Assembly (NCBI GenBank): GCA_000092065.1
Contig: CP000582.1
Direction: 5' to 3' (one strand)
DNA: 64,000 bases
Source of the DNA: Ostreococcus lucimarinus
Taxonomy: Eukaryota
Below are positions 20,447 to 55,149 of this stretch, piece after piece (within the stretch, counting starts at the first letter, position 1; the number at the start of each line of letters is the position of its first letter). Made by a program: the position numbers and the translations under genes. Under the pieces are notes generated by a model, which did not search any database, had not been told where the DNA came from, and saw nothing but the letters and a program-made list of their open reading frames with translations.

Positions 20447-20519
20447 TACGTTGCGGTCCGCTCGAAATTTTAGAAATTTTAGTAGAATAGACGGATTTTT
20501 ACAATTCAATTCGAGGGCG

Positions 20520-21953
20520 TTAGCCAAATGTCGCGATCGTGCGAGCGATGATCTTCGCTGCATCCTTCATATCGCTCAAGCTACAGTATTCATCATCCGC
20601 GTGGTACGTACTCATCAAACCGAAACCGATGAGTTGGATGTCGAAACCGTTCTGTTGCATTTCCGCGACGAGAGGAAGCGAACCGGTCAAACTGTACGGC
20701 TCAGCTTGACCTTTGACTTCTTGGATAACGTCGCAAAGTGTCTTGAGAGCCGGGCTCGATAAGTCGCACGCGATTCCTGTAAGTAAGTGCTCGCCCCATT
20801 CAAGTTCGAGCGAACCGCGAAGCGTGCCGCCTTTGCCGTCCGGAATGACAAATTTGCTGTAGTCTCCCTTGGTCGGAAGCGATTCAACATCGGCGTTAAT
20901 CGCCGCTACTTCGGCTTCGATGCATGCCTTGACATTATCCACTGGGTAGAAAGGCGTCAAACGAATGTCACCTGAAATCGTGGCTTCCGGCGGGATCTGA
21001 TTCAAACCGCCCGGGGCGCACGAGATTTGCGTCGGCTTCATCGTGCTCGAGGTGATGAATTTGTAGTCCCGTTCTTGCTCACACGCGGGAAACGTCGCGT
21101 AAAACTTTTCTTGCACGCGTTCAATGGCAGCCATACCGAGTTCGATCGCGTTGATACCCTTGTGTGGTAATCCAGAATGAAACCGATGTCCTTTCGCCTT
21201 GAGCGCCCACGTAATCGCCCCCGCCGTGCCTATGCACGGTTGACTATCCGCGCAGTCCACCCAAATCACCGGCCCCGGTTTACAGTGATCCAATTTTCCA
21301 TCCGCGACGAGTCCATCGACGCCGATCCCCGGTCCATTCGCCTCCTCGCTCGCGATGAACACGCACGTCAACGACGTATCCAACTCTGGCTTCAGCTCCC
21401 CGAGCTGCGCGAAAATCGTCGTCATCAACGCCACGTGTCCCAAGCAATCCGTCGTCCCTCTGCCGTACAATTTATCCCCATCCATCGTCAATTTAAACGG
21501 ATCCACGCTCCACGCTTCGGGATTCGCCGGCACGACGTCCATGTGACTCCCCGCGAACGTCAATTGTTTCTCCTTCGCCGCGTTCGCGCCGCGTCCCGGG
21601 TACCGAATCACCACGTTGCCCCGTCCTTCGGCGTACGTCACGTGTTCGACCTCGAGCACGCCCCCGTTTTCGACGCGGTACGGCTTCAGGGTCTCGAGGA
21701 CGTGTTTTACCGCCAGATCTTCGCGCGGGACGTGCGCCGTGCCGACGCCGGTGTTTTGAAGGTGTCGCGACTCGCCGATGAGTCGGGACAAGAGGTTGAG
21801 AAAGACGTCTTCGTCGAGTTCTAGCGCGCGCAAGGCGTCCGCGGCGGCGGTGGACATGGCGCGCGGTCGGGGACGCGCGCGGTGCGAGCGCGTGAAGCGA
21901 CGGTGGCGCGCGAGGACGGAGTGCGGCGCGATGGAACGAGCCGCGGCGGGCAT
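20520..21953 (-). CDS. M20-family peptidase, ArgE/DapE-type (N-acetylornithine deacetylase-like), with an N-terminal organellar presequence.
   Basis: ATG at 21951-21953. Contains SHMDVVPANPEAWSVDPF...GRGTTDCLGHVALM, the M20 metal-binding motifs. The N-terminus is R/S-rich (MPAAARSIAPHSVLARHRRF). Confidence 0.8.
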   Translation of the reverse strand: MPAAARSIAPHSVLARHRRFTRSHRARPRPRAMSTAAADALRALELDEDVFLNLLSRLIGESRHLQNTGVGTAHVPREDLAVKHVLETLKPYRVENGGVLEVEHVTYAEGRGNVVIRYPGRGANAAKEKQLTFAGSHMDVVPANPEAWSVDPFKLTMDGDKLYGRGTTDCLGHVALMTTIFAQLGELKPELDTSLTCVFIASEEANGPGIGVDGLVADGKLDHCKPGPVIWVDCADSQPCIGTAGAITWALKAKGHRFHSGLPHKGINAIELGMAAIERVQEKFYATFPACEQERDYKFITSSTMKPTQISCAPGGLNQIPPEATISGDIRLTPFYPVDNVKACIEAEVAAINADVESLPTKGDYSKFVIPDGKGGTLRGSLELEWGEHLLTGIACDLSSPALKTLCDVIQEVKGQAEPYSLTGSLPLVAEMQQNGFDIQLIGFGLMSTYHADDEYCSLSDMKDAAKIIARTIATFG

Positions 21954-22016
21954 AGTTGTGAAGTCGCGGCGTCGAGCCGCGGCGAGCGCGAGAGTTACAA
22001 ACTCGGGGAAAAGTCG

Positions 22017-29334: not shown

Positions 29335-29958
29335 TCAGACGAACTCGTTCAACAGACGCTCTACGGTTTGCGCGTCGAGACCCATGACGCCGTCCATCGA
29401 CCCTTCGATGCGCTTTAGATACGGCTGAAGCAGCGGATGCTCGACCATGAGACCTCCGGCGCAAAACATGCACTCGCCCTCGTCCACGATGGCGTTCACG
29501 ACGTCATCGGGAATTTCGTCGAAGACGACGGTGTTCACGTCCACCGCCGACGCCGACTTTCCGCTCGATAAATCCGTCACCATCGTCGACCCGACCGTGG
29601 ACGGCGGGTCCAAGCCGTACCCGCGTATGAACTCTCGCGCCTCGCTCGCGCTCGTCGGTTTCTCGCGGATGATTCCTCGATGCACCACGACTTGGTCGCA
29701 CGTGATCAACAATCTCCGCGCTCCCTCACCGCGCTCCGCGAGCTTTTCGCGCACCGCCGTCGCCTTCGCGCTCGCCAGCGCGCGCACCAAAACTTCGGGA
29801 TCATCAAACCGTATCGCCTTCTCGTCGATATCCGGCTTCTCGATGACGTACTCGATGTTCATCCCCGACAAGATGGCGCGTCGCGTCGCCGAGCCCGAGC
29901 CCAAGATCACCGCCGTCGACGTCTCCTTCAATCTTTCCGCGACCGTTTTCGCGTTCAT
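29335..29958 (-). CDS. MAF: Maf-like nucleoside triphosphate pyrophosphatase (septum formation protein Maf family).
   Basis: Starts MNAKTVAERLKETSTAVILGSGSATRRAILSGMNIEYVIEKPDIDE..., the Maf N-terminal motif, with homology through the C-terminus. The ATG lies at 29956-29958. An upstream in-frame ATG at 30045 would add a short presequence. Confidence 0.8.
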   Translation of the reverse strand: MNAKTVAERLKETSTAVILGSGSATRRAILSGMNIEYVIEKPDIDEKAIRFDDPEVLVRALASAKATAVREKLAERGEGARRLLITCDQVVVHRGIIREKPTSASEAREFIRGYGLDPPSTVGSTMVTDLSSGKSASAVDVNTVVFDEIPDDVVNAIVDEGECMFCAGGLMVEHPLLQPYLKRIEGSMDGVMGLDAQTVERLLNEFV

Positions 29959-30089
29959 CGCGCGCGCGATCGCTTCGTTCCGCCCACACGCGCGCGTCCG
30001 AACGATCCACGCGCACCGACGCGTCCAGGTCGTCGTCGCGCGCATCCGCCGCGTTTTGCGGCGCGCGTCCTCGTCCCTCCGCGGCGCCT

Positions 30090-30439
30090 TCACCCCGTCC
30101 CGCCTCCGAACGTCGACGTCTCCCGCTCGCTCGCTCGCCCGTTCGCCAGCGTCTCTCGCTCGGCGTCGCGCAGCTCGCGTTCGCTCGGCACGTTCGCGCC
30201 GAACAGCTTCCGCCACGCGCGTCCCGCGCGCTCGGCGTCCTCGCGCGTCAGCGGCGACGTCCCATTCGCGTCTCCCTCGCCCGTCTCCGCGCGCGCGCGC
30301 GCCGCCCGTCGCTCGGGCGCGGGTAATCCCTCGCGCTGCGCGCGCTTCACCGCGAAGCACTCCCACAGGTCGCTCCATTTCTCGTCGCACGCGTCGAGCT
30401 CGCCGTGTCTGTAGTACCGACTCAACTGAAACATCGGAT
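30090..30439 (-). CDS. Small Cx9C-motif protein, exon 2 (DPMFQLSRYYRHGELDACDEKWSDLWECFAVKRAQREGLP..., then stop).
   Basis: ORF with a single C-x9-C (CDEKWSDLWEC). The acceptor gacgcag sits 5 nt upstream of the listed ATG (30434), with the branch site GAGACTGACGACG. Confidence 0.45.
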
Positions 30440-30505
30440 CTGCGTCGCGTCGCGCGCGTCGTCAGTCTCGCGCCGCGCGATTCGGCGCGGTCGTTCGAGG
30501 CGCAC

Positions 30506-30572
30506 CGTAGCACGTCCAGACGCGCTCGACGGCCTCGGCGACGGTCTCGGGCGGGAGATCCGCGCGCGTCAT
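30506..30572 (-). CDS. Small Cx9C-motif protein, putative exon 1 (MTRADLPPETVAEAVERVWTCY + 1 nt).
   Basis: Its ATG lies at 30570-30572. The donor ACG|GTGCGCC lies at 30505. The 66-nt intron 30440..30505 has a full branch/acceptor signature. The splice keeps frame into exon 2. Confidence 0.35.
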
Positions 30573-30680
30573 GGCGAGGCTCGGAGTGCCGCGCGCCGTC
30601 ACAGCGCGACGCGTCGACGGCGAATCGCGCGCGGCGATCGACGCCGTGCGCGCGGTGAGAGACGCGCGGGCGACGCGGCG

Positions 30681-32597
30681 ATGCGCGTCGACGCGGCGCG
30701 CGCGCGCGCGGCGACGCGCGCGGACGCGATGGCGTCGAGGTGCCGACTCGGACGACGCCCGGAGGGTTCGCGCGGTGCGACGACGCGCGCGCGGCGCGCG
30801 CGGCGCGCGAGATGGGTCGAGTGCGCGGTGACGGACCCGCCGGTGACGCGCGAGGCGGTCAGGACGTCGGACGTGGAGCTGTTCGAGGGGAAGAAGCGAT
30901 TGCAGACGCAGGCGACGGCGCTCGGCGAGGGCACCACGCTGATACGGTCGCTCGATTGGGATCGCGATCGGTTCGACATCGAGTTTGGGTTGGAAAAAGG
31001 GACGACGTATAACTCGTACATCATTCGCGGCGCGCCCGGGACGGCGGCGCTGATCGACGCGAGTCACGAAAAGTTTCGGGAGTTGTACATGAAGACGCTG
31101 ACTGGAGAAATCGACCCGCTGGAGATCAAGTACGTGGTGTGCTCGCACACCGAACCCGATCACTCGGGATTGATCGGAGACGTGCTGAAGATTGCGCCGA
31201 ATGCGACGGTGCTCGGGAGTAAGGTGTGCTTGGCGTTCTTGGAGAATTTGATTCACGAGCCGTTCGAGTCGAGGGTGGTCAAGGGGGGCGACGTCGTGGA
31301 TTTGGGCGACGGACACGAGCTGAAGTTTATCATGGCGCCCAACTTGCATTGGCCGGATACGATGTTCACATACGATCCGAAGTCACGATTGATGTACACG
31401 TGCGACGCGTTCGGGTCGCATTATTGCAGTGAGGACCCGTTCGACGGGGACTTGAGCGCGTTGATGCCGCACTATCGTTTCTACTACGAGTGTTTGATGA
31501 AACCGAACGCTCGATCGGTGCTCACGGCGCTTCGCAAGTGCGAGTCCGAAGGCGCAGATTTTGTGGGCATTTGTAACGGCCACGGACCGTTGCTGCGGTA
31601 CAACGTGGACGAACTCGTGGGGGATTACAAGAAATGGAGCGAGAGCGCGTTGGCCAAGGCCAAGGCAAACGTGGCGGTATTTTACACCGCCGAGTACGGT
31701 TTCAGCGATCGACTTTCGCAGTCCATCGCGCGCGGGTTGACGAAGACCGAAACAGAGGTTGTCATGATGGATTTATTGTCCGCAGATTCTCAAGAACTCG
31801 TCGAAACGACGAAGCACGCGGCTGGCATCGTCTTGCTTTCGCCGCCGCGCGCCGGTCCAGCCAACGAGCAGCTCGCCAACATCATCGGCGCCGTGGACGC
31901 CAAGCAAAAGTTCTTCATCGCGGAATCGTATGGTGGTGAAGACGAGCCCGTGGACTTGTTGGCGAAGAAACTCGCCGAGCTCGGCGTTACCGAGGCTTTT
32001 TCGCCCCTCAAGGTGACGAGCGACCCGACCGAGGGCACGTATCAATTGTTCGAAGAGGCTGGCACCGATTTGGGTCAACTTTTGACGAAGAAGAAGACAC
32101 TGGCGGACATGAAGAGCGCCATGTCACCTGACGTCGCCAAGGCGCTCGGTCGTGTCAGTGGAGGCTTGTACGTCGTCACCGCCGCGCAGGGCACCGCGCG
32201 TTCGGCGATGATCGCGTCTTGGGTCGCCCAAGCCTCGTTCGAACCTCTCGGTTTTACCGTCGCGGTGGCGAAAGATCGCGCCATTGAATCACTGATGCAA
32301 GTCAACGACACGTTTGTCCTGAATTGCCTTCCCGAGAACGGCTTCGAACCGTTAATGAAGCACTTTCTGACGCGATTCCCACCCGGCGCCGACCGCTTCG
32401 AGGGCGTGGAGTGGGCGCCTGCCAACTGCGGCGCGCCCATCCTCGGCGACGCCGTGGCGTTCATGGAGTGCCGAGTGGTGTCTCGAATGGAAGCCAACGA
32501 TCACTGGATCGTGTACAGCGAAGTTTTCAACGGTAAGGTGTTCAACCAAGACGTACGAACGGCGTCCCATCATCGCAAAGTCGGCTCTTACTACTGA
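30681..32597 (+). CDS. FLVB: Class-C flavodiiron protein (metallo-beta-lactamase-like + flavodoxin + C-terminal flavin reductase domains), FLVB-like, with a plastid transit peptide.
   Basis: The canonical diiron ligand motif CSHTEPDHSG is present, with a flavodoxin-like region and a C-terminal flavin-reductase domain ending HHRKVGSYY. The ORF-track start at 30405 is GTG; candidate ATGs lie at 30681 and 30729. TGTAA lies 20 nt after the stop. Confidence 0.85.
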   Translation: MRVDAARARAATRADAMASRCRLGRRPEGSRGATTRARRARRARWVECAVTDPPVTREAVRTSDVELFEGKKRLQTQATALGEGTTLIRSLDWDRDRFDIEFGLEKGTTYNSYIIRGAPGTAALIDASHEKFRELYMKTLTGEIDPLEIKYVVCSHTEPDHSGLIGDVLKIAPNATVLGSKVCLAFLENLIHEPFESRVVKGGDVVDLGDGHELKFIMAPNLHWPDTMFTYDPKSRLMYTCDAFGSHYCSEDPFDGDLSALMPHYRFYYECLMKPNARSVLTALRKCESEGADFVGICNGHGPLLRYNVDELVGDYKKWSESALAKAKANVAVFYTAEYGFSDRLSQSIARGLTKTETEVVMMDLLSADSQELVETTKHAAGIVLLSPPRAGPANEQLANIIGAVDAKQKFFIAESYGGEDEPVDLLAKKLAELGVTEAFSPLKVTSDPTEGTYQLFEEAGTDLGQLLTKKKTLADMKSAMSPDVAKALGRVSGGLYVVTAAQGTARSAMIASWVAQASFEPLGFTVAVAKDRAIESLMQVNDTFVLNCLPENGFEPLMKHFLTRFPPGADRFEGVEWAPANCGAPILGDAVAFMECRVVSRMEANDHWIVYSEVFNGKVFNQDVRTASHHRKVGSYY

Positions 32598-32707
32598 CGC
32601 GCCGTCGACCCCGCATGTAATTCTTAACAAAAAATGTTGGCTCTTTCAATACAACAAACGTCGCGACGTGCGAGCGTTCCAGCACTTTCTAATCAATTCG
32701 CGCACGT

Positions 32708-33175
32708 CTACATGCTCATCCTACCCACGAAGCGTTCCACGTCGCGCGTGAATTGCGCCTCCGCCGCCGTCTCCCCCCTTCGCGTCGCGTCGCTCGTCGC
32801 GCTCTTAACCGTCCCCGCCACCATCGTCCGCTTCACTCCACTCACCACCGGTTGCGGTGTCGGCGCATCCGTCGTCATCGTCGGCATCATGCTCACCACG
32901 CCGAGCGCGAACGCCAGCACCGCCTTTGTCGCCGCGTCCCGCTCGCGATTCACCCTCGCCGCCGCGCGTTCCAACCGCGTCGGTTTCACCGCGCGTCCCG
33001 CGTCCACGGAATCTCCGAGTCTCAGCTTCGCGACGAGATCATCGTTCTTCGCTCGCCGCGCCGTGGACGACGCGTCGCTCGTCGGCGCGTCGTCCGCGGA
33101 CGTCGCGCGTCGCTTCGGGACGCGGCGACGGTGAGAGTCGAAAAACGCGCTCGGCGGCACGCGCGGAAGCAGCAT
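32708..33175 (-). CDS. Candidate small protein (155 aa) with one predicted TM helix (AVLAFALGVVSMMPTMTT); unassigned.
   Basis: The ORF lies in a roughly 900-nt gap between genes. Its residue composition is more protein-like than the opposite-strand ORF. No homology was recognised. Confidence 0.25.
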   Translation of the reverse strand: MLLPRVPPSAFFDSHRRRVPKRRATSADDAPTSDASSTARRAKNDDLVAKLRLGDSVDAGRAVKPTRLERAAARVNRERDAATKAVLAFALGVVSMMPTMTTDAPTPQPVVSGVKRTMVAGTVKSATSDATRRGETAAEAQFTRDVERFVGRMSM

Positions 33176-33541
33176 GGCGACGCGCGCGCGTCACGTCGCG
33201 CGCGAAGCGCTTTTTCTTCGTCACCGCGCGCGCGCGGCGTCGGGCGCGCGAAGACGAGGCGCGGTGTGGGGAGAATTATCCAGCCACGAGGGCGACGCCG
33301 CGCCTAGTCAGCGCGCGAGGACGCGCGAGAGGACGCGGCTGAAAAACGAGACGGAGATTGTCTGAAAAGCGGCGACTCGACTTCTGGAGACGTGATTCGT
33401 ACGAGCGTTGATATCTATACAAAACTATGACGGTGCGAACGCGCGCGGTGAAAGCTGGAGGAGGCGCGAGAGACGATATCGCCGGCGCGAGATCGCTCGA
33501 TCTCCTCGGAAAAAGTGGTTGGAATCGCGCGGAGAGCGGCG

Positions 33542-35263
33542 TTAGCTCACCGTGCGACCGAACGCGACGGCGCTGATGTAAAGGTTCTTCGCCCACTTTT
33601 CTTTGACGTGCGTGGACGGGAAGGCCGAGGTGCGAAGAGTTTCCTGCGTCTCGTCGCCCGGTCGGCGGCGAGGGATGGAGAGCACGAAGGCGGCTTGGTC
33701 TGTCGTCGCCGCGCAGCACGTGATGCGGAAACCACCGTTCCAGCGTCGGTGAATGCCTTCACTCGGGTACATAAAGTCCAGTTCAACGCATTGATCGACG
33801 AAACCGGCGTTTCGGGACATGACGACTGCCCAGCGGCACCCGCAAGTGGCCATGGAGGTGACGTAAAAGCCTTCCTTCCACTTTTTATTGATCCACTTGA
33901 AGGGGAACGAGTCGCTCACCTTGTACGACTGCTGCGTGTACGTCGAGCCTTTCGACATGACGACGATGGCAGAGCCGGCGGACGAACCCGCGAGCGCGGT
34001 GATGTAGTATCCATCGTCCCACTGTTCCAAGATCCAGTCCTTCGGCAAGAAGTGCGTGGACAAGTTCCAAATCTGCGCGCTGAAGCCCGTACCGGCGTCC
34101 ATGATGAGCGCCCAGAGCTCAGCCGAACAGGAGACGCTGGAGATGAATAGACCGTCATCGTTACCTTTCTCCACGTGCTGCTCGATGCGCGAGTTCGCCA
34201 CGTTGTAGTGGTATCTTTGCTTCATCGGTCGGTGGGCGTTGTAAATGGTGATCCATTGCTGCGCGGGCAAGCCGACGCGTACCTTCTTCTTCAGTCGGTC
34301 CTTATCGTCGGTGTCAAACTGCATGTCAGAAATTTTACGCTTCATGCCAACCTTCTTCGCGCCTTCGGTAGAGATCGGGCGTCTCGCGACGGCGCCGCAC
34401 AGAGGCTCAAAGAGTCCGGACATGGCTCCGTACTTAGGTTCTTCGTCAAACTTCAAGTTGATGACGGCTTCCATAAACTGCCTGAATGCGCTCGGAGTGT
34501 ATCTGCAAAGCGCCTCGGGACTGGTAGCCATCTTCTTCTTGCATACTAAAAACCCCTTGTTATCGCCTTGGTAACCTTGCCACGGTAATCGCCCCTTCAA
34601 GAGGAACAATAAAGTATACGCCAGCGATTCCAAGTCGTCGCGTCGAGATGCGGTGCGGCCCAAGTGCGCGTGCACGGACGCGTAACGCACTGTTCCTCGG
34701 AAAATATCTGGTCTCTGGTCGTATTCTATGTGAGCCGAACAAATTGGGTCGCGCCAACGCGTCCCCAGACCTAAATCAACCAAATACAACTTCTTCTCCG
34801 TCGGCGTTCCCGGAGGTCCGAGCAAAAAGTTCTCCGGCTTGATGTCGCCGTGCACGAACCCTTTACTGTGAAAGTTCTCCAAAATCGCGAGCGACTCCAC
34901 CGCAATGCACGCGACCATCTCCTGCGACATCATCTGCCCGTTCGCGTTCCACTTATCCCACAAAGACGGCCCCAACAAATCCATCACCATCACGTAGTAG
35001 TCTCCTTGACTCCCCTTATAGTGCACCTTCGGCACCCCGAGAATACCCCCCAGCGAGTTATACACGCTCCACTCGTACGGTGGTCCGTAATCACATCCCT
35101 TACTCGACCTGTGTTCAAACTTCAACGCCACCTGGTTCGCATTCGGCCCCGTCGTCGCGCTCGGGTCGGTCGGCTTCAACCGCCGTCCGACGTACACCTG
35201 CCCGAACCCGCCCTTTCCGAGTTTCCGTTCCACGATGTACACGGGCGATCCCCCGACTTGCGT
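33542..35263 (-). CDS. MLK: MUT9-like / CK1-family kinase (MLK/PPK type), exon 2: kinase domain plus the conserved C-terminal region.
   Basis: The kinase domain carries [18 protein letters not shown]...[12 protein letters not shown]...[12 protein letters not shown] (CK1-like). The C-terminal region has repeated W..G..IT motifs, as in plant MLKs. Confidence 0.85.
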
Positions 35264-35435
35264 CTGCATCGTTCACAAACCACACACTCGTCAATCTCGC
35301 GTCGTCGTCGCGTCGCCGGCCGCCGTCGCGCCGTCGCGAATCGCGTTCGCGTCGTTCGCGCGTCTCGGGTTTGAATCGCCTCGCCGCGCGCCGCGCGTTT
35401 CCGCGCCCGCGCGCGTCTCTCGCCCTCGCGCGCAC

Positions 35436-35519
35436 CTTCTCCGGCACGGGCGCCGTGGAGGGGTCGTCCCCCACCGGCGCCGCGTGGTCCCCGCTTCGTT
35501 CCTCGCTCGGTTCGTCCAT
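35436..35519 (-). CDS. MLK: MUT9-like kinase, putative exon 1 (MDEPSEERSGDHAAPVGDDPSTAPVPEK).
   Basis: The donor AAG|GTGCGCGCGAGG lies at 35435. The 172-nt intron 35264..35435 carries the branch site GATTGACGAG and the acceptor GATGCAG. The ORF-track ATG at 35269 lies inside the acceptor. The frame is kept into [14 protein letters not shown]. Confidence 0.55.
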
Positions 35520-35880
35520 CGCGCGTCGTCGATCGCGCGCCGACGCGTCTTCTCGAGATCCTCTCTCGCGCGTCGCTCGCGCGTCGCTCGAGCGCGCGCG
35601 CGCGTTCGCGCGCGCCGACGCGACGATCGGCGCGTCGTCGACGCGCGCGGACTCGAGGCGTCGCGTCGCGCGGGCGTCGCGCGGGCGTTCGACGATCGGT
35701 CGAGTCGTCAAGTGTCGCGTCGGCGAATCGTCGCGTCAGACGACGACGCGCGACGCGCGACGCGCGACGCGCGCCATGATTCGCGCGCGCGTCGCGCCCG
35801 CGCGCGCGCGAGATCGCGTCGCGTCGACGCGCGCGCGCGCGCGACGCGGGCGTCGCTCGAGCGCGGCGCGGGCGTCGTTC

Positions 35881-36603
35881 ATGGATAAACTGTTGGACTT
35901 GGTGACGCCGAAGGATTCCGACTCGAGCGCGCCGAATCGCGAGGCCTACGACGCGTGGACCGCGCGGGCGACGGCGAAGGACGCGTCCGTCGCGGCGGTG
36001 CTCGCGGCGGTGCGCGGGACGGTGCTGGAGGGGAGGGTTTTGGAGGTGGCGTACGACGCGGAGACGCGAGGGTACAACGCGCGAGCGTTTCACGCCGACG
36101 TCGACGGGCGCGGGCCGTGCCTGGTGATCGGGAAAACCACGAAAGGGTCGCGGTTCGCGGGGTTCAATCCGCTGGGTTTTTATTCCGTCGAGGATTATCG
36201 CGAGAGCGGGAACGCGTTTTTGTGCAAGTGGCGGAGCGACGCGGCGTTTCGACGAGGAGACGCGCCGAGCGACGTCGCGAACGTCTTGCCGGGGGGAAAT
36301 GCGGCGATCTTTGATTTTGGCGCGCAGGGACCGTGCTTCGGCGTCGATGCTTTGCGCGTGCCGCTCGGTTTCGCGCCACCGAACGGGTCGTCGTACGCGG
36401 GCGTCGGCGGTTCGTTCGATCTCGGCGAGGCGAACGCCACGGGCTCGCGCGAGTGTAAGAGCCGGTTGGGCACCCATTACGAATCATTCGAGGACGGGTC
36501 CGGACTTTTTAAAGAAGGCGCCGGCGCGACGCTCGCGGAATTACGAGTGTACTACGCCCCCGCGCTGCGTCGAAACGAATCCGACGGGTTGTACGTTTCT
36601 TGA
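35881..36603 (+). CDS. TLDc-domain protein (Oxr1/NCOA7-like C-terminal domain), 240 aa.
   Basis: ATG at 35881 (MDKLLDLV). LEGRVLEVAYDAETRGYNARAFHADVDGRGPCLVIGKTTKGSRFAGFNPLGFYS...NAFLCKW matches the TLDc core. The upstream part of the listed ORF (35080-35880) is low-complexity and overlaps the MLK gene. Confidence 0.7.
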   Translation: MDKLLDLVTPKDSDSSAPNREAYDAWTARATAKDASVAAVLAAVRGTVLEGRVLEVAYDAETRGYNARAFHADVDGRGPCLVIGKTTKGSRFAGFNPLGFYSVEDYRESGNAFLCKWRSDAAFRRGDAPSDVANVLPGGNAAIFDFGAQGPCFGVDALRVPLGFAPPNGSSYAGVGGSFDLGEANATGSRECKSRLGTHYESFEDGSGLFKEGAGATLAELRVYYAPALRRNESDGLYVS

Positions 36604-36658
36604 ACGATTCGCCGCTTTTTAGAATACGACTAGAACTAGCTAGCAGCGTCCGAATCAC

Positions 36659-37672
36659 TCACGCCAGACTAAACGCTTTCGCGAGTTCGTTCATCGACGC
36701 TCGATCGATGACGGAGCCGCCGCACACGACGACGACGATCGGCGCTCGCGGGTCGGACGATATCCCGTCGAGCGCGCCGAGTTCCGGAAAGTACGCGGCG
36801 GAGAGCGCGGCGCCGCACGCCGGCTCGACGAGCACGCGATGATCGTCGGCGAAGCGCAGGCACGCGGCGACGGCGTGCGCGTCGTCGCACGCGCGCACGC
36901 GCACGCGCGCGTCGCCGAGTTCGACGCACATCTTAAACACCGCCGGCGACGGCGACGCCGCGCCGAGAGATTTCGCCACGCTCGTGATCGCCGGCAGCGT
37001 CACCACCTCTCCCGCGCGCATCGACGCGTTCAGCGAATCCGCCCCGATCGTCTCCATCGCCACCACGACGACGTCGTCGCCCCATCCGCACCGCTCGATG
37101 CCTCGCAGACATCCCGCCAGCAATCCGCCGCCGCCGACGCACGTCGCGACGGCTGCCGGCTTTCGTCCGCCCAAATCTTCCGCGATCTCATCGATCATCG
37201 TGCTGTGCCCGTCCCACGTGTCCTCGCCCTCGAACGGGTGTATCATCGCCCCTCCGCACGCCGCCGCGCGCGCCGTCGCCGCCGCGTTCGCCTCGCTCCA
37301 CTGCGTCCCGCGCACCTCAACCTCGGCGCCGTACGCGCGCAGCGCGTCCCGCACGCGCTCCGGCGTCGTCTCCGGCACGTACACCACCGTTTGCGCGCCC
37401 AGCTCGCGTCCCGCGTGCGCCGTCGCGAGTCCCGCGTTGCCGCCCGAAGAGGAGACGAGCAGGCGCGCGCCGTCGCGCTCGACGGCGAGCGCGCACGCGC
37501 GTCCGACGCCGCGCAGCTTGAACGACCCGCTCGGCTGCGCGCACTCGAGCTTGAGGTACACGTCGCGACGCATTATCTCGCTCAGCGGCGCGGACTTCAC
37601 GAGCGGGGTGCGAACGTGGAGCCGCGAGACGTCGCGCGCGGGCGCGACGGAGGCGAAGACGACGCGAGGCAT
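36659..37672 (-). CDS. PLP-dependent serine/threonine dehydratase (serine racemase / L-threonine dehydratase family).
   Basis: Contains LKLECAQPSGSFKLRG, the PLP-lysine motif, and the glycine-rich loop SSGGNAGLA. The ATG lies at 37670-37672. Confidence 0.85.
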   Translation of the reverse strand: MPRVVFASVAPARDVSRLHVRTPLVKSAPLSEIMRRDVYLKLECAQPSGSFKLRGVGRACALAVERDGARLLVSSSGGNAGLATAHAGRELGAQTVVYVPETTPERVRDALRAYGAEVEVRGTQWSEANAAATARAAACGGAMIHPFEGEDTWDGHSTMIDEIAEDLGGRKPAAVATCVGGGGLLAGCLRGIERCGWGDDVVVVAMETIGADSLNASMRAGEVVTLPAITSVAKSLGAASPSPAVFKMCVELGDARVRVRACDDAHAVAACLRFADDHRVLVEPACGAALSAAYFPELGALDGISSDPRAPIVVVVCGGSVIDRASMNELAKAFSLA

Positions 37673-37813
37673 GGTGTGACGCGACGACGGTTCGCGACCG
37701 ATCGACGACGACGACGACGCGAAGACGACGCGCGCGAACGATTCATTTCGAGCGCCGCGTTAAAACTAACGCTAGACTACCCGCGCGACGCGACGCGACG
37801 CGACGCTCGACGA

Positions 37814-38333
37814 CTATCGCGACGGCGCGCCGACGCGCGCTCGACGACGGCGCTCGCGCGCTCTGCGCGTCTTCGTGTGCGCCAGCGCGACGCCCTCGCC
37901 CTCGAGCCACTCGACGAACACCGCGCGACTCGCCCGCACGCCCGCGACTCGCGCGCGCGCCAGCGCGTCGTCGACGTCGACGCCGCGCGTCAGCAGCGCG
38001 CGCTCGTACGTCTCGTCGTCGGCGCGAAGCCACGCCGCGAGCGCGTTCGCGACCTCGGAATCCGTCGCCGCGCGTCGCGTCGCGCGTCGCGTCGCGCTCG
38101 ATCGCGCGTCTCCCGTCGTCGCGGCGTCGCGGCCGCGCTTTAATCGCTCGCGAAGCGGTGGAATCTCGCTCTCGGACGCGTCGTCGCCGTCGCGCCGAGC
38201 GTCGAGCGCCGAGCGCGGTCCGTCGTCGTCGTCGTCGTCGTCGTCGCTCGTCGACGCGTCGCCGCTCGCGCGTCGATCGGCGAGAATTCGAGCGAACGCC
38301 TCGCGCACGCGCGCGCCGCCCTCGCGCTCGTCC
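37814..38333 (-). CDS. Small acidic protein, exon 2 (RDEREGGARVREAFARILADRRASGD..poly-D..., then stop).
   Basis: The acceptor CGCGCAG lies at about 38336-38334, after the branch site GACTGACGACG. The exon joins in frame to the ORF listed as 37814..38308. Stop at 37814-37816. Confidence 0.45.
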
Positions 38334-38360
38334 CTGCGCGCGACGCGTCGTCAGTCGTCG

Positions 38361-38390
38361 CGAACCGAACCGAACCGAACCGAACCGAAT
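38361..38390. repeat. (CGAAC)n pentanucleotide microsatellite, about 5.5 units.
   Basis: The sequence cgaaccgaaccgaaccgaaccgaaccgaat is seen directly. It lies inside the putative minus-strand intron. Confidence 0.85.
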
Positions 38391-38417
38391 CGTCGCGCGC
38401 GCGCTCGCCGCGCGCAC

Positions 38418-38506
38418 CGATCGACGCCCATCGCGCGCAGGAGCTCGCCGACGACGTCGTCGCGCGTCGCGCCGAGCGCGCGCGCGATGGCGTCGACGCG
38501 CTCCAT
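38418..38506 (-). CDS. Small acidic protein, exon 1 (MERVDAIARALGATRDDVVGELLRAMGVD + 2 nt), a UBA/CUE-like helical motif.
   Basis: The donor CG|GTGCGCGCGG is identical to the psaE and FAM32A donors. The roughly 84-nt intron contains the (CGAAC)5 microsatellite. Coordinates may be off by 1-2 nt. Confidence 0.4.
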
Positions 38507-38564
38507 CGCGCGCGCGTCGCGCGATGGCGACGCGCTGACGCGGACGGCACTCGACGACGCCGCG

Positions 38565-40718
38565 ATGCGCGCCGCGACGCGCGCCGCGACGCGCGGTGAC
38601 GCGACGCGATGCGCGACGCGACGCGCGCGCGATGTCGCGCGTCGACGGCGCGCGACGGCGCGACGCGCGCTCGAGACGGGACGCGAGGAGACGCGCGCGG
38701 CGGATTCGAAGCGCGCGCGCGACGCGCTGTTCGCGGCGAACGACGGCGCGCGCGACGGCGACGACGGCGACGATCGCGTCGCGACGCGCGATGACGTCGT
38801 CGGCGGGGTGGCGATGGTGTCGTTCGCGACGCGCGCGCGACGGACGTTCGAGGTGGAGTACGGCGCGCGGCGAGGGACGACGGAGAACGCGTACGCGACG
38901 CGAGGCGAAAAGGATGCGTGCCTGATCGATTGCGTCGACGGGAGACACGCGGAGGGGTACGCGCGCGAGATCGAGGGGCTGGGGGCGTGGGCGCGCGACG
39001 CGGCGTATCACGCGGTGCTGCACGTGAGTCCGCGGCGGTTGGACGCGCTCGCGGCGGCGATCGCGAACAGGAGCGAGGGCGCGGCGTGCGTGGAGGTGCT
39101 GTGCTCGAATCCGGGGGCGCAGTTGATTCAACAGGCGCTGAAACCGAATAGTCCTCTGACGAATGAAGCGCTGTGTGCGGCGTGGAAGGGGACGGATGGG
39201 AAACTGAGGGCGCGGTTGCGCGTCGTGCGCAACGGCGAGCGGTTGGATTTGGGCGGGCGGACTTTGAGATTTACGCTCGCGCCCACGCCGCGTTGGCCGG
39301 ATTTGATCTTCGCGCGCGATGAGAAGTCGCAAACTCTGTTTACATCGAAGTTTTTCTCCGCACACGTCGGCACGATGGAAGGATACGGCGATGAGGGCGG
39401 GTTGGAGACGTTCGGGGAGGATTGGAGGTTTTACTTTGACTGCCTCCTCGCGCCGATGGCGAGGCAAGTGTCGCCTTTGCTCGAGAAGCTTACCGTGAAA
39501 GAAGAGAACGCGTACGACGAACGGATGGGACGACGGATGGAGGAGTGGGAAAAGAGCGGCGCGGTGAAAAAGGTTTTGCTGCGCGCGATGGGCAAGTCCA
39601 TGGCGGGGAAAACGAGCTCGCAAGCGTTCGAGGGCGTCGCGAAGACTATTTGCCCGGCGCACGGCCCGGTCGTCGCGTCCTCGGTCACGGAGCTGTATCG
39701 AGAGTACGTAGAGTGGTGCAAAATGCAAACTTCCGCTGGGGATAACTTGTCCGTGGCCGTCATCTACGCCAGTGCGTACGGGAACACCGGCGCGATGGCG
39801 CAAGCCATCGCGCGAGGCGTCGCCAAGACAGGCGTCGGCGCGGAAATGTTCAACTGCGAGCTCGCGTCACCGATCGAAGTGGAAGAAGTGTTGAAACGTA
39901 GCGCGGGGTTCGCCCTCGGTGCACCGACGCTCGGTGGCACTTTACCGACGCCCGTGCAGACCGCACTCGGGGCGATCGTGAAGGAGGGCGATTTGGAGAA
40001 GCCGTGCGGCTCCTTTGGATCCTTTGGCTGGTCTGGCGAAGCGGTGGCGATGATCGACAAACGCTTGACAGACGCGGGCTTTAAAAGTGCGTTCGAGCCG
40101 TTGCGGTGTAAATTCAAACCTACCGCCGAGACGCTGCAGCTTTGTGAAGAGAGCGGGACGGATCTCGCGCAAGCGGTGCGCAAGATCGAGCGCCGCAAAC
40201 AAGTGCTCGAGCGTAAATCCGTCGGCCAAGCCGCGGACGGCGTCAGTGACACCGCCGCCGCCGTCGGGCGCATCGTCGGCTCGCTATGCGCGGTGACGAC
40301 GAAGAACGAAGACACGCAAAGTGCCATGTTAGCGTCTTGGGTATCTCAAGCGAGCTTCAATCCGCCGGCGCTCACCGTCGCCGTCGCCAAGGAGCGCGCC
40401 GTCGAGAGTTTCCTCATGACCGGCGGCAAGTTCAACCTCAACGTCCTCAAGTCCGGCGGCGAAAAGGACGTCATGAAGGCCCTACTCAAACCGTTCGCTC
40501 CCGGTGAGAACCGTTTCGGCGCGCTCGACGTAGACATCTCCGAAACCAACGGCTGCGCCGTGGTGAAACAGGCCCTCGCGTGCGTCGAGTGCACCGTCAC
40601 GAAGCGAATGGAGGCCGGCGACCACTGGGTCGTCCTCGCCGAAGTCGAGCGCGGGACTCTCTTAGACGCCGAAGGCGTGACGAGCATCCACCACAGAAAG
40701 ACTGGTAGTTCTTATTAA
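38565..40718 (+). CDS. FLVA: Class-C flavodiiron protein, FLVA-like (non-canonical diiron site), with an N-terminal transit peptide.
   Basis: The FDP core starts near VAMVSFATRARRTFEVEYGARRGTTENAYATRGEKDACLIDC. The ligand region reads DCVDGRHAEGYA, deviating from H-x-E-x-D-H. A flavodoxin-like region and a C-terminal flavin reductase domain are present, ending HHRKTGSSY. The start ATG is uncertain: 38565 is preferred, and 38487 would overlap the divergent small-protein exon. The ORF-track start at 37875 is GTG. Confidence 0.8.
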   Translation: MRAATRAATRGDATRCATRRARDVARRRRATARRALETGREETRAADSKRARDALFAANDGARDGDDGDDRVATRDDVVGGVAMVSFATRARRTFEVEYGARRGTTENAYATRGEKDACLIDCVDGRHAEGYAREIEGLGAWARDAAYHAVLHVSPRRLDALAAAIANRSEGAACVEVLCSNPGAQLIQQALKPNSPLTNEALCAAWKGTDGKLRARLRVVRNGERLDLGGRTLRFTLAPTPRWPDLIFARDEKSQTLFTSKFFSAHVGTMEGYGDEGGLETFGEDWRFYFDCLLAPMARQVSPLLEKLTVKEENAYDERMGRRMEEWEKSGAVKKVLLRAMGKSMAGKTSSQAFEGVAKTICPAHGPVVASSVTELYREYVEWCKMQTSAGDNLSVAVIYASAYGNTGAMAQAIARGVAKTGVGAEMFNCELASPIEVEEVLKRSAGFALGAPTLGGTLPTPVQTALGAIVKEGDLEKPCGSFGSFGWSGEAVAMIDKRLTDAGFKSAFEPLRCKFKPTAETLQLCEESGTDLAQAVRKIERRKQVLERKSVGQAADGVSDTAAAVGRIVGSLCAVTTKNEDTQSAMLASWVSQASFNPPALTVAVAKERAVESFLMTGGKFNLNVLKSGGEKDVMKALLKPFAPGENRFGALDVDISETNGCAVVKQALACVECTVTKRMEAGDHWVVLAEVERGTLLDAEGVTSIHHRKTGSSY

Positions 40719-40958: not shown

Positions 40959-42743
40959 ATGGGCTTCAAAGAGCTCCTCAAAGACTCCGTCACGGAGGTC
41001 TTCACCTACCGCACCACGAAGCTCGTGAAGACGAACGATAAGTTCTTAGTGACGCTGCACTTCATATTCATGAGCCTGATCGCGACGTTCGCGCTGGTGT
41101 CGATCTTATTGAGTCATAACTACATGCTTTTCGAGCTTCCGGCGCTGTACGTGACGACGACGTATCAGAAATTCGGACCGGATCCGGTGACGAGCAACGT
41201 GGTGCTGGCGCGTGAAATCGCGCAGAATGCGACTGTGGATTATTGTAACACAGGGTACGTGAATTGGCGTCGAGGGGGGAAGGTGTTTGACGACGCTTAC
41301 ATGACGGCGCTCGAATGTACGGCGCAGCACGCGCCGGCTGAGTACGTGTGGCCGTTCGATGCGGGGAATGGGATGACCATCGGCACGTTTGCAGAAGTAC
41401 ACTCCGTGACGAGATCGTGTACATCACCGGGCGCGTCGACGTACGGGGCGGCAGGGTGTACGGAGACTCAGACGTCGCCGCAAGCGTACATGGTGGTCGG
41501 CGTAGACTTGCTGAGCATGCAGTTAGATATTCGGTACCAAACAGCCACTGGAACTCTTAACGAGGCGGAAGTCGTTGACGTAAATGGAGTAGAGTATATC
41601 ACCTCGATAACCAAGCCGACGGTCACGTTTCCGCAGTTGTTAGCCATGGCGGGGATCAACTCGCTCGACGAAACAAATCCCTCAATCGTCGGCGACCGAG
41701 GCTCCGTGACAGGGCTGCCCTATCGCATGTCGGGCCTGCGCCTGAACGTGAAGGTGTCGTTTACAAACACTTATTTTAGTAAACCGTTGAAGACGACGGT
41801 CACGGCGACTTTGTCTGCGGAACAAGTGAAGACGAATAACTTCAACGCGAAGACGACGGTGACGTATTTGCCTCACCCAACAGATGCCGGGATACATTCC
41901 ATATCGCGGTACTTCCACACGTGGGCCACGTCAACCGTCACGTTTGTGTCGTCCGGGCATATCGGCAAGTTCGACTTGTTCGCCTTGGCTCTCGCCATCA
42001 CGAACGCTTTCGTGCTAATTGGCATGGCGACGACCATCGTAGATTTTGTTGGCGTCATGTCTTCTGAAACGTTTTTAGACGACAAGTACGAAGACGACGG
42101 CGAACGTTTCGGTTTAGAAATGATGCTAGCGAACATCGAGAACGATGATCACCCGGGAGTGCCGTTCGATCCCAACGACTTGCGCTTGAAGGACGCTGCC
42201 GGCGACCCTGGCCTGAGCTACGAAAAGACACTCGAGCAGTTACTCGACGAGGTGCGGGAAATCCAAGAACAGCTCAGTCTGCTGCCGGAAGATGAAAATG
42301 AGCTTCGCGCTATCACTACTGGCCATGCTGAGGAAGAAGAGTATAGAAAGCTGCGCTTGATTTACGTCCCTGACCCGCTCTCAACTGAGGCAAACGACAA
42401 GTCCTACGTTCCTCCAGAGATTTTATTGCACGACGGTCAGCAAACGATCGGTCGTGGCATGGGGGGTATTGAAAACAAGGGCGTGAGTAGACAGCAGTTC
42501 TCAATCGCGGTCATCAAGGAAAGGATCCGCATGAAGTCTCTGCACGAAGGACCTGGGGTGTGGCGCCAGAGCTCAGGTCGTTGGGAGATGCTCCCAGTCG
42601 GCAAGGCCGCTGTCTTGAGTGTTGGCGATCGTTTGTGCTTTAGAATGCGAGAGGGTAAATTGGGGGGGCACGAAGGCGTGTTCACGCTCGATTTCCAAGA
42701 CACGCGCATGGAGTGCACGGTGTTTGGAATCCCGTTGCGTTGA
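40959..42743 (+). CDS. P2X-receptor-like ligand-gated channel (two TM helices, divergent ectodomain) with a C-terminal extension containing an FHA-like domain.
   Basis: The N-terminus VFTYRTTKLVKTNDKFLVTLHFIFMSLIATFALVSILLSHNYMLFE resembles the P2X pre-TM1/TM1 region ([36 protein letters not shown]). GHIGKFDLFALALAITNAFVLIGMATTIVDFV resembles P2X TM2 ([28 protein letters not shown]). The C-terminal QTIGRGMGGIENKGVSRQQFSIAV...LSVGDRLCF is FHA-like. Confidence 0.65.
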   Translation: MGFKELLKDSVTEVFTYRTTKLVKTNDKFLVTLHFIFMSLIATFALVSILLSHNYMLFELPALYVTTTYQKFGPDPVTSNVVLAREIAQNATVDYCNTGYVNWRRGGKVFDDAYMTALECTAQHAPAEYVWPFDAGNGMTIGTFAEVHSVTRSCTSPGASTYGAAGCTETQTSPQAYMVVGVDLLSMQLDIRYQTATGTLNEAEVVDVNGVEYITSITKPTVTFPQLLAMAGINSLDETNPSIVGDRGSVTGLPYRMSGLRLNVKVSFTNTYFSKPLKTTVTATLSAEQVKTNNFNAKTTVTYLPHPTDAGIHSISRYFHTWATSTVTFVSSGHIGKFDLFALALAITNAFVLIGMATTIVDFVGVMSSETFLDDKYEDDGERFGLEMMLANIENDDHPGVPFDPNDLRLKDAAGDPGLSYEKTLEQLLDEVREIQEQLSLLPEDENELRAITTGHAEEEEYRKLRLIYVPDPLSTEANDKSYVPPEILLHDGQQTIGRGMGGIENKGVSRQQFSIAVIKERIRMKSLHEGPGVWRQSSGRWEMLPVGKAAVLSVGDRLCFRMREGKLGGHEGVFTLDFQDTRMECTVFGIPLR

Positions 42744-53379: not shown

Positions 53380-55149
53380 ATGCCGTTCGCGTCCGTGCAG
53401 GCGTGCGCGCGCGCGCTGAGCGTCGCGGTGCGATGTAAGACGGCGTCGCTCGTGCCGAGACGCTCGCGCGCCGCGGTGACGGCGCCGGCGACGACGGGCG
53501 CGCGGCGGGGCGTGATGACGGAGGCGGTGATCGCGGACGACGTCGGCGAGGCGCGGGTGACGGCGGCGGCGGCGGGGAAGCGACGGGTGGTGGTGCTGGG
53601 GAGCGGATGGGGGGCGATTTCGTTCGTGAAGAGCCTCGACGCGAGCGGGCCGTACGACGTCACGCTGGTGTCGCCGAGGAATTATTTTTTGTACACGCCG
53701 TTGTTGCCGGGAGCGGCGACGGGGGCGGTGGAGGATCGGTCGATCGTGGAGCCGATTCGACGCCCCATCTCGAGCAAGGGGTACAGGTACTTTGAGGCGA
53801 ACGCGCTGAGCGTGGACGTGGCGAAGCGAACCGTGCGGTGCCGAGGGAGCGATCATACGTTTCAAGATGAGGAGGATCTGGCTAAGAGCCAGGCGTGGAA
53901 GGAGTTTGACTTGGAGTACGATTACTTGGTCACGGCGGTGGGGGCGGTGCCGAACACGTTTGGCGTGCCGGGGGTGCAGGAAAATTGCATGTTTTTCAAA
54001 GAGATCAACGACGCGGCGCGGTTTCGACGCGAGGTTAACGAAAGATTTGAATGTGCCACGCTTCCGGGGGTGCCGAAAGAGCGCATCCAGCAGTTGTTGC
54101 GTTTCGTTGTCATCGGCGCCGGGCCCACCGGCGTCGAGCTCGCCGCGGAGCTGTACGACTACGTGTACCAAGATGTGGCGAAGACATTCCCTCGTCGGTT
54201 GCTCGAAGACGTGAGCATCGAAATCATCGATTTACAAGAAAAGATTTTGTCGGCGTACGACAGGCGGATCGCAGAGTACGCGACGGATTTCTTTCAACGG
54301 GCCAACATCAAGTGCCTGCTCGGCGCCGCCGTTAAGGAGGTCAAGGACGGCGCCGTCGTCATCTCTGATCGTGATGGTTCGAACGTGCGCGAAGTTCCGT
54401 TCGGGCTCGCAGTTTGGTGCACGGGTATCAAGCTCAACCCGTTCTGCGAAAAGCTGATCGAGTCTTTACCCCAACAAGAAAACAAGCGTTCGTTACTCAC
54501 CGATAAGAATCTTCGAGTCAAGGGAAGCGACGGGACGATTTTTGCCTTGGGCGATTGCGCCACGATCGAACGTCCGCGCTCGCTCGCCAAAGCGGAAGAA
54601 CTCTATCGAGAAGCGGCGCGATGCACCCCAGAAGGTGACTGCGAAATCGATCTCAGCAAGGACGGCGTGAAGAAGGCGTTGAAGTACGGCTTCGACGAGT
54701 TTCCGCACTTGGAAGAAATTTACAACCGCGTGGATGATGTTTTCACTACGTTCACGGGTGGTAGTGATCGTATGTCTTTCCCCGAGTTCCGTGTCATGCT
54801 CGAAGACGTTGACAAAGGCCTTCGCGCTTTGCCGGCGACGGCGCAGGTAGCTAAGCAAGAGGGCCAGTACCTTGCTCAGTATTTCAACACTTGCGCGGGG
54901 GATGAGGATAAAATCAAACAAGGTGACGCGCGATTCGATTACGTGCACAAAGGTTCGCTCGCGTACATCGGCAAGGACGCGGCTGTCGCTGATATTCCCG
55001 GTTTCGCCATCGTAAAGGGCTTTGCTGCCGGTTTGATTTGGAAATCGTTTGAGACAGTTTCCCAGGTTTCCCCGCGCAACGTTCTTCTCGTCGCCGCCGA
55101 CATGATCAGAACCAAGATCTTTGGTCGCGACATTTCGCGCATCAACTAA
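53380..55149 (+). CDS. Type II NAD(P)H dehydrogenase (alternative NADH:quinone oxidoreductase, NDB-like with a putative EF-hand insert), with an organellar presequence.
   Basis: Contains the Rossmann motifs VVVLGSGWGAISF and VVIGAGPTGVELAAEL, plus an insert DLSKDGVKKALKYGFDEF...FTGGSDRMSFPEF that is EF-hand-like. An in-frame upstream ATG lies at 53206 (MANKRW...); the choice of 53380 is uncertain. Confidence 0.85.
   Translation: MPFASVQACARALSVAVRCKTASLVPRRSRAAVTAPATTGARRGVMTEAVIADDVGEARVTAAAAGKRRVVVLGSGWGAISFVKSLDASGPYDVTLVSPRNYFLYTPLLPGAATGAVEDRSIVEPIRRPISSKGYRYFEANALSVDVAKRTVRCRGSDHTFQDEEDLAKSQAWKEFDLEYDYLVTAVGAVPNTFGVPGVQENCMFFKEINDAARFRREVNERFECATLPGVPKERIQQLLRFVVIGAGPTGVELAAELYDYVYQDVAKTFPRRLLEDVSIEIIDLQEKILSAYDRRIAEYATDFFQRANIKCLLGAAVKEVKDGAVVISDRDGSNVREVPFGLAVWCTGIKLNPFCEKLIESLPQQENKRSLLTDKNLRVKGSDGTIFALGDCATIERPRSLAKAEELYREAARCTPEGDCEIDLSKDGVKKALKYGFDEFPHLEEIYNRVDDVFTTFTGGSDRMSFPEFRVMLEDVDKGLRALPATAQVAKQEGQYLAQYFNTCAGDEDKIKQGDARFDYVHKGSLAYIGKDAAVADIPGFAIVKGFAAGLIWKSFETVSQVSPRNVLLVAADMIRTKIFGRDISRIN

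Follow-up and report, generated by a model that had tools for sequence, protein, structure and literature searches.

Two genes for flavodiiron proteins, FLVB and FLVA, lie a few kilobases apart on one strand of a 64,000-nucleotide stretch of the green alga Ostreococcus lucimarinus (NCBI GenBank assembly GCA_000092065.1, contig CP000582.1), hereafter the window, and the question they raise is whether this proximity is accidental, inherited or of present use. According to published work, FLVA and FLVB (Flv1 and Flv3 in cyanobacteria) jointly drive light-dependent O2 reduction downstream of photosystem I (PSI). In cyanobacteria, algae and non-flowering plants, flavodiiron proteins are the main PSI safety valve; they are being introduced into crops, and the linkage and orientation of their genes bear on how one-to-one expression of the subunits is secured. 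The locus, on chromosome 2 of O. lucimarinus, comprises the nuclear genes for both class-C flavodiiron proteins of green-lineage chloroplasts. Taken as a whole, we hold with high confidence an account in which the two genes are an FLVB/FLVA pair of ancient paralogues, with linkage that was inherited, a function assigned by homology and a layout that probably arose from a head-to-head arrangement.

An initial annotation, made from the sequence alone, had placed an FLVB-like and an FLVA-like gene on the same strand about 6 kb apart, and the coordinates bear this out: both are intact, intronless open reading frames (ORFs) on the + strand, running from the FLVB ATG at 30681 to the FLVA stop at 40718, with 5,889 bp between the FLVB stop and the FLVA ATG. 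The upstream protein is residue for residue that of O. lucimarinus CCE9901 (XP_001416098.1 / ABO94390.1), annotated as 'diflavin flavoprotein A 1-like'. The 743-amino-acid FLVA has an exact match in the protein collection, and is a called gene on the near-identical marine metagenome contigs L001 and L002. The two genes and the motifs discussed below are as follows.

30681..32597, + strand: FLVB, a Flv3-type class-C flavodiiron protein of 638 amino acids (Pfam, PDB matches, ligands, tree)
31143..31163, + strand: SHTEPDH, FLVB's diiron motif of the canonical H-x-E-x-D-H form
31341-31358, 31398-31415 and 31575-31589, + strand: the other FLVB ligand motifs, NLHWPD, TCDAFG and NGHGP respectively
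31695-31712 and 31923-31949, + strand: flavodoxin-domain loops of FLVB (alignment)
38487..40718, + strand: FLVA, a Flv1-type class-C flavodiiron protein of 743 amino acids (Pfam, 6H0C, ligands, tree)
38937..38960, + strand: DGRHAEGY, FLVA residues 151-158, 27 residues upstream of the true degenerate site
39018..39038, + strand: LHVSPRR, FLVA residues 178-184, the true degenerate counterpart of H-x-E-x-D-H (alignments)
39495..39647, + strand: FLVA-specific insertion of about 45 amino acids before the HGP motif, residues 337-387 (alignment)
39777-39791 and 40014-40043, + strand: flavodoxin-domain loops of FLVA (alignment)

The class-C architecture initially proposed for both ORFs was recovered in full, and because of their Pfam, PDB and 6H0C domain matches we regard both as three-domain class-C flavodiiron proteins. 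FLVB matches the ODP/Lactamase_B and Flavin_Reduct models of Pfam, with Flavodoxin_1 below threshold at 18.9 bits; its middle domain nonetheless matches flavodoxin-like domains of known structure (3HLY, 3FNI and 2KLB) with E-values of 1e-32 to 1e-35. FLVA matches Flavodoxin_1 (50.7 bits) and Flavin_Reduct and no metallo-beta-lactamase model; the metallo-beta-lactamase domain emerges only when the protein is aligned with the Synechocystis Flv1 core 6H0C (a match totalling 282 bits), FLVA residues 118-339 pairing with 6H0C residues 21-218. Both proteins carry N-terminal extensions rich in R and A, of about 80 amino acids in FLVB and about 100 in FLVA (103 by alignment), against 13-21 in cyanobacterial homologues, and extensions of this length (~80-100 amino acids) are consistent with putative chloroplast transit peptides. 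Scans of the whole window for tRNA, Rfam families and tandem repeats returned no RNA genes and only CG-rich low-complexity repeats. Several of these repeats fall inside the transit-peptide-like coding regions of the FLV genes; degenerate tandem repeats at 38461-38727 and 30627-30728 lie within and just 5' of the corresponding coding ends of FLVA and FLVB, and a (GAACC)n run directly precedes the FLVA start. The insertion before the HGP motif is also present in FLVA of O. tauri and of Micromonas type, whereas FLVB and cyanobacterial Flv1 lack it; by position it matches the 'FLVA-specific residues I313-K364' of the moss Physcomitrium patens (PMC11408035). Its sequence is poorly conserved.

The diiron ligands separate the two proteins. 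Ligand columns were those of Escherichia coli NorV (H79, E81, D83, H84, H147, D166 and H227) in an alignment of 41 sequences. The upstream protein, like every FLVB/Flv3-type sequence aligned, reads H-E-D-H-H-D-H, so that the canonical motif noted at the outset, SHTEPDH, stands with all seven NorV columns conserved. The same columns read H-S-R-R-R-K-H in the window FLVA, five of the seven being non-canonical, and H-N-N-R-R-K-H in the Synechocystis Flv1 core. Every FLVA/Flv1-type sequence aligned (21/21) is non-canonical, mostly following H-[SNATG]-[KNR]-R-R-K-H, with three exceptions, and H-S-K-R-R-K-H is the reading of most land-plant and algal FLVA. The ligand difference between the two genes therefore persists on realignment. 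The initial annotation was right that the downstream site is degenerate but misplaced it at DGRHAEGY, a candidate ruled out by three independent alignments; this motif aligns with 'SHEKFRELY' of FLVB and 'DHKFSREF' of NorV. At the true site, LHVSPRR, the first H is kept, E is changed to S, D to R and the second H to R. Further downstream H147 is replaced by R in TPRWPD (39285-39302) and D166 by K in TSKFFS (39342-39359), and H227 is retained within PAHGP (39654-39668).

The phylogeny places the two window copies in different FLV clades. The tree was built by neighbour-joining from 41 sequences and 594 columns, with 200 bootstraps, a NorV root and no Flv2 or Flv4 references; reference labels follow source names and the accessions given in the preprint on Symbiodiniaceae FLV. 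An FLVB clade (99% bootstrap) holds the window FLVB, Chlamydomonas Cre16.g691800, Selaginella 448328 and cyanobacterial proteins with canonical ligands. The window FLVA groups with Marchantia MpFLV1 and Selaginella 143660 in a eukaryotic FLVA clade (100% bootstrap), which in turn unites at 81% bootstrap with the Flv1 core of Synechocystis and with cyanobacterial proteins resembling Flv1. Ligand pattern and labelled tree agree with the original assignment of the upstream gene to the FLVB/Flv3 type and the downstream gene to the FLVA/Flv1 type. The two window proteins are 32% identical and, because of this and their separate clades, they are ancient paralogues and not the result of a recent duplication. 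As judged from sequence, FLVB and FLVA descend from cyanobacterial Flv3 and Flv1. FLVA is the faster-evolving of the two, being 71% identical between O. lucimarinus and O. tauri against ~87-88% for FLVB; relative to Micromonas-type loci the values are ~55% for FLVA and 73-76% for FLVB.

Divergence in the flavodoxin domain runs opposite in sense to that of the iron site. Loops in the FLVA/Flv1 clade are canonical, as in NorV (YGNT / G[SA]PTLGG / FGSFGWSGEA), and those of the FLVB/Flv3 clade are non-canonical but conserved in their own right from cyanobacteria to conifers (YGFSDR / PP..G / ESYGGxDEP); the Pfam scores run in parallel. According to the literature, flavodiiron proteins dimerize head to tail, which brings the iron site of each chain opposite the flavin mononucleotide (FMN) of its partner. 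In a head-to-tail heterodimer, only the composite site formed by FLVB iron and FLVA FMN would be fully canonical. Counter to this idea, about one flavin per monomer was found in both moss proteins, and both sets of residues were termed typical (PMC11408035).

Between FLVB and FLVA lie five genes, of which four are encoded on the opposite strand. The initial annotation correctly recognized a kinase, a TLDc gene and a serine dehydratase but overlooked two others, a 155-amino-acid ORF and an Slx4-like ORF. Together with the flanking genes the features are these.

29338..30093, - strand: Maf-like gene flanking the conserved block on its left (tblastn; Pfam Maf on the L001 copy)
30093..30434, - strand: PANTS-like small gene, divergent neighbour of FLVB (comparison with related loci)
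32708..33175, - strand: 155-amino-acid ORF of unassigned function, 3' of FLVB (called in L001/L002)
33542..35269, - strand: casein-kinase-I-like (CK1) kinase with C-terminal DUF7477, 575 amino acids (Pfam Pkinase; DUF7477 E 3e-153)
35776..36603, + strand: TLDc-domain gene, 275 amino acids (Pfam TLD E 1.6e-7)
36659..37672, - strand: L-serine dehydratase / ammonia-lyase dependent on pyridoxal phosphate, 337 amino acids (Pfam PALP E 7e-67; PDB 1P5J E 2e-71)
37814..38308, - strand: Slx4 C-terminal-like ORF, 164 amino acids, divergent from FLVA (blastp)
38309..38486, no strand: 178-bp spacer between the divergent Slx4-like gene and FLVA (coordinates only)
40959..42743, + strand: 594-amino-acid gene next downstream of FLVA, a conserved position (67-72% identity across the other Ostreococcus loci)

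Because five genes on both strands intervene, FLVB and FLVA cannot share a transcript or a promoter. Their strand and order match those of an operon, in which genes are adjacent and co-transcribed, but the gap of five genes does not; and, being co-directional, they are not a head-to-head pair either. The genome of O. lucimarinus is about 13 Mb in size, and by our own estimate the chance of two named genes lying within ~8 kb in it is near 0.1%; the pair is, moreover, linked again at each related locus inspected.

Gene order in related genomes, and in the 80 loci returned by a metagenome scan, shows that the linkage extends well beyond this species. The order on chromosome 2 of O. tauri is Maf, PANTS-like, FLVB (+), small ORF (-), CK1-DUF7477 (-), serine dehydratase (-), Slx4-like (-), FLVA (+) and the 594-amino-acid gene (+), and the order from FLVB onwards, the small ORF being the 155-amino-acid one, is found in O. 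tauri and three further Ostreococcus clades. Loci L017 and L018, which represent two further Ostreococcus clades, have the O. tauri order with TRM13 added before FLVA and without TLDc. In 11 of the 11 Ostreococcus-type metagenome loci with a second FLV gene detected, FLVA is on the same strand, ~6-7 kb past the FLVB stop. Bathycoccus-like loci, so labelled on guanine-plus-cytosine (GC) content alone (0.47-0.52), have the same order, with 8.4 kb between FLVB and FLVA in L058.

Elsewhere the two genes are linked but divergent. In Micromonas commoda RCC299 (CP001326.1) the order is CK1-DUF7477 (+), FLVB (-), a 549-amino-acid gene (+), Slx4 (-) and FLVA (+), with the FLV genes divergent across ~4 kb; L005, L007/L008 and L045 have this layout, the divergent orientation is also seen in L009, L010, L013, L015 and L016, and in L036 and L040 only Slx4 lies between the pair. 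FLVB and FLVA are directly head-to-head, ~630 bp apart, in L010-L012 (Micromonas-type, GC 0.72), as they are in the trebouxiophytes Micractinium tetrahymenae (390 bp) and Elliptochloris bilobata (835 bp); in Coccomyxa elongata they are divergent with HSP70 between them. Micromonas and three trebouxiophytes thus share a head-to-head pair with 0-2 genes in between. In Klebsormidium no FLVB was found within 10 kb of FLVA, and the Chlamydomonas genes Cre12.g531900 (FLVA) and Cre16.g691800 (FLVB) are unlinked, as had been stated, lying on different chromosomes. Within the Mamiellophyceae, where a check of synteny had been proposed, the pair is linked in all Ostreococcus clades sampled, in Bathycoccus-like contigs and in Micromonas. 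The linkage of FLVB and FLVA is therefore old, and inherited rather than accidental. The suggestion of an ancestral tandem arrangement is supported as regards the linkage, which extends to the three trebouxiophytes, but is not established as regards the tandem orientation, the genes being divergent outside the Ostreococcus/Bathycoccus-like group.

Because of that distribution, the same-strand layout may be derived. The starting layout would have been a head-to-head pair like those of Micromonas and the trebouxiophytes; an inversion carrying a block of FLVB, CK1 and serine dehydratase would have produced the layout of Ostreococcus and the Bathycoccus-like loci, and at least one further rearrangement would have taken place besides. 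In both layouts CK1-DUF7477 lies past the 3' end of FLVB and Slx4 lies immediately 5' of FLVA, pointing away (Slx4 was undetected in L010), as expected from inversion of a block containing FLVB and CK1. If the Bathycoccaceae (Ostreococcus and Bathycoccus in the NCBI taxonomy) are monophyletic and the trebouxiophytes are the outgroup, a head-to-head ancestor requires one change and a tandem ancestor two. Derivation from a head-to-head pair is somewhat better supported than its converse, and we lean towards it only slightly.

Several points weigh against this account. A single inversion, considered as the whole difference between the layouts, proved insufficient, since the orientation of the serine dehydratase does not fit; one inversion does not fully interconvert them. 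A neighbour-joining tree of FLVB only puts the low-GC group outside Ostreococcus plus Micromonas with 96% bootstrap; taken as the species tree, it would make a tandem and a head-to-head ancestor equally parsimonious. Because it conflicts with the taxonomy, we set this tree aside for the branching order of the low-GC group; compositional bias is the probable cause, and the placement may reflect compositional attraction of two GC-rich genera. The cyanobacterial flv3-flv1 operon likewise runs from the FLVB-type to the FLVA-type gene on a single strand. Since the FLVB tree and this operon-like order leave the polarity uncertain, a head-to-head origin is not treated here as shown. Furthermore, the low-GC loci are assigned to Bathycoccus by composition only, the clade placement of the two window genes rests on the tree built without Flv2 and Flv4, and the function of the Ostreococcus proteins is assigned by homology only.

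A bolder version, to which we give slightly less than even credence, is that green-algal FLVA and FLVB began as a divergent pair with one short bidirectional promoter, a eukaryotic substitute for the operon, and that the Ostreococcus/Bathycoccus layout is a later product of inversion. If this is true, divergent pairing keeps the two FLV subunits in balance, and survives in Micromonas and the trebouxiophytes, lineages listed in the literature as being without flv organisation.

The strongest alternative is that the linkage has no present function, being leftover synteny in a compact genome whose two genes are regulated independently. It is compatible with the history favoured above, the dispute being only over present selection on linkage. 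The set of five intervening genes on both strands varies by clade, TLDc and TRM13 being present or absent, and Chlamydomonas and Klebsormidium manage with unlinked genes. Moreover, the 350-bp regions upstream of the two FLV genes, compared over four Ostreococcus clades, have no k-mer of at least 7 in common, and words common within the FLVA set or within the FLVB set are only short, mostly CG-rich 8- and 9-mers. An 11-mer, CGATCGACGCC, common to both upstream regions of the window is not conserved and is within chance for the composition. Against independence stand the persistence of linkage over two classes while neighbouring genes change, and the need for the products in stoichiometric amounts (PMC11408035). 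We consider leftover synteny a serious possibility, though not the favoured one.

Less well placed is the proposal that the same-strand order is a relic of the cyanobacterial flv3-flv1 operon, which would have reached the nucleus in one piece and been split by insertions, with head-to-head pairs arising through independent inversions. Order and strand do match the flv3-flv1 operon of most cyanobacteria, and a 2015 review words the green-algal cases as 'retaining clustering' (PMC4390876); we also see the operon in eight metagenomic cyanobacterial loci, and the FLVB gene tree sets the tandem Bathycoccus-like lineage outside Ostreococcus plus Micromonas. The eight loci (L083, L087, L089-L091, L094-L096) each have a contiguous same-strand stretch of ~3.6 kb scoring for Flv3 and Flv1. 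The proposal needs two independent inversions where one suffices, given Bathycoccaceae monophyly and the trebouxiophyte outgroup; two classes have the divergent layout, its tightest form included (390-835 bp); and the constant positions of CK1 at the FLVB 3' side and of Slx4 at the FLVA 5' side (other than in L010) fit inversion of an FLVB block. We think it unlikely. Finally, a recent tandem duplication within Ostreococcus with one copy decaying, as might be suggested by two genes of the same domain architecture on the same strand 6 kb apart, is ruled out almost to certainty by the low identity of the copies, by a tree in which each falls in its own clade with cyanobacteria and land plants, by an FLVA ligand pattern that is that of the whole family, and by an FLVA that is intact and conserved along its full length.

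The neighbouring genes differ in their conservation. Every Ostreococcus and Bathycoccus-like locus keeps the Maf-like gene upstream of FLVB; the 155-amino-acid ORF downstream of FLVB is likewise conserved in these loci, is 51-65% identical in O. tauri, L017 and L018 and has no Pfam match. The best PDB match of the CK1-like kinase is 3SV0, a casein kinase I-like protein; CK1-DUF7477 is 86-87% identical between Ostreococcus and Micromonas-type loci, above the 73-76% of FLVB, and lies within a few kb of the FLVB 3' end in every Mamiellophyceae locus examined, in both layouts. The TLDc gene is patchy, being present in window-type loci and L025 only and absent here from O. tauri, L017, L018 and the Bathycoccus-like loci; TRM13 methyltransferase lies just upstream of FLVA in L017, L018 and L028, which lack TLDc there. 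The 164-amino-acid ORF is a called gene on related contigs; its window copy has no direct Pfam match, but blastp relates it to the Pfam-confirmed Slx4 of L017 (E 3e-25) and to M. commoda Slx4 (E 6e-11). The divergent pairing of Slx4 (-) with FLVA (+) is also conserved in Micromonas-type loci. The 178-bp spacer between these two genes presumably holds both promoters; a bacterial promoter and terminator scan, not suited to a eukaryote, found nothing in it. The 594-amino-acid gene has no significant Pfam match and is ~35% identical in Micromonas-type loci, where it too lies downstream of FLVA; its homology with the Micromonas gene of 549-591 amino acids between FLVB and FLVA was accordingly rejected.

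Antisense or out-of-frame ORFs of up to 686 amino acids overlap the real genes at 37743-39803 (-), 35176-36477 (-) and 29335-30513 (-), at GC 0.65-0.69; none has a Pfam match and they look like artefacts of composition. GC content is 0.50-0.57 at 14000-22000 and 54000-64000, against 0.60-0.69 elsewhere in the window. Ostreococcus chromosome 2 is known to have a compositionally atypical region.

The function of the pair can be framed from work on its relatives. In P. patens, FLVA and FLVB each bind iron and roughly one flavin, they assemble into heterotetramers, and in vitro they use NAD(P)H to reduce O2, with FLVB the more active of the two (PMC11408035); the canonical ligands are a property of cluster B (Flv3, Flv4) and not of cluster A (Flv1, Flv2) (PMC4390876). 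By analogy with Chlamydomonas, Physcomitrium, Marchantia and Synechocystis, Ostreococcus FLVA and FLVB would assemble into hetero-oligomers in the plastid, and these would pass excess photosynthetic electrons to O2 and so protect PSI under fluctuating light, with the diiron centre of FLVB as the probable site of catalysis. In the literature searched we found no experimental work on what FLV proteins do in Ostreococcus, nor any expression, localisation or activity data for that genus.

Table 1 of Allahverdiyeva et al. 2015 (Life 5:716; PMC4390876) has the entries 'Ostreococcus lucimarinus CCE9901 ->flv3-XP_001416099-flv1->' and 'Ostreococcus tauri ->flv3-3 ORFs-flv1->', and because of this listing the clustering of FLV genes in Ostreococcus was already known. 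The O. lucimarinus entry is the same locus, XP_001416098 (flv3/FLVB) being the upstream gene of the window, but gives one intervening ORF where we find five conserved genes. In the table, Micromonas RCC299, Micromonas CCMP1545 and Chlorella variabilis have no flv organisation, whereas the sequence of M. commoda RCC299 has the divergent pair ~4 kb apart described above. FLVA and FLVB of O. tauri and Micromonas had also appeared in published alignments and trees (bioRxiv 10.1101/2021.04.03.438294). No earlier description of head-to-head FLVA/FLVB pairs was among the ranked literature results, from a query that did not require FLV terms. The gain for this locus is hence small: a catalogued pair is confirmed, its degenerate site relocated, the count of intervening genes corrected and the head-to-head pairs of other algae shown. 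The pairs in Micromonas and trebouxiophytes are a modest comparative addition to the known clustering.

Among characterized systems, FLVA and FLVB of Chlamydomonas and P. patens are orthologues with the same ligand dichotomy, three domains and FLVA insertion as the window proteins, Chlamydomonas FLVB being 61% identical to that of the window; but the Chlamydomonas pair, unlike that of Ostreococcus, is unlinked, and it is in Chlamydomonas and in the moss that function has been tested. Among solved structures, Synechocystis Flv1 (sll1521; PDB 6H0C/6H0D core) matches both window proteins best, and its ligand columns agree with those of the window FLVA except at the second and third positions; FLVA additionally has the insertion of ~45 amino acids and a transit-peptide-like extension relative to cyanobacterial Flv1. 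The cyanobacterial flv3-flv1 operon has the gene order of the window, but its genes are adjacent and co-transcribed rather than 5.9 kb and five genes apart. A further example from a eukaryotic nucleus is the fused FLVA-FLVB gene of Symbiodiniaceae (bioRxiv 10.1101/2021.04.03.438294), in which the paralogues are likewise physically coupled, there as a single coding region in the order FLVA-FLVB, and in Ostreococcus as separate genes in the order FLVB, then FLVA.

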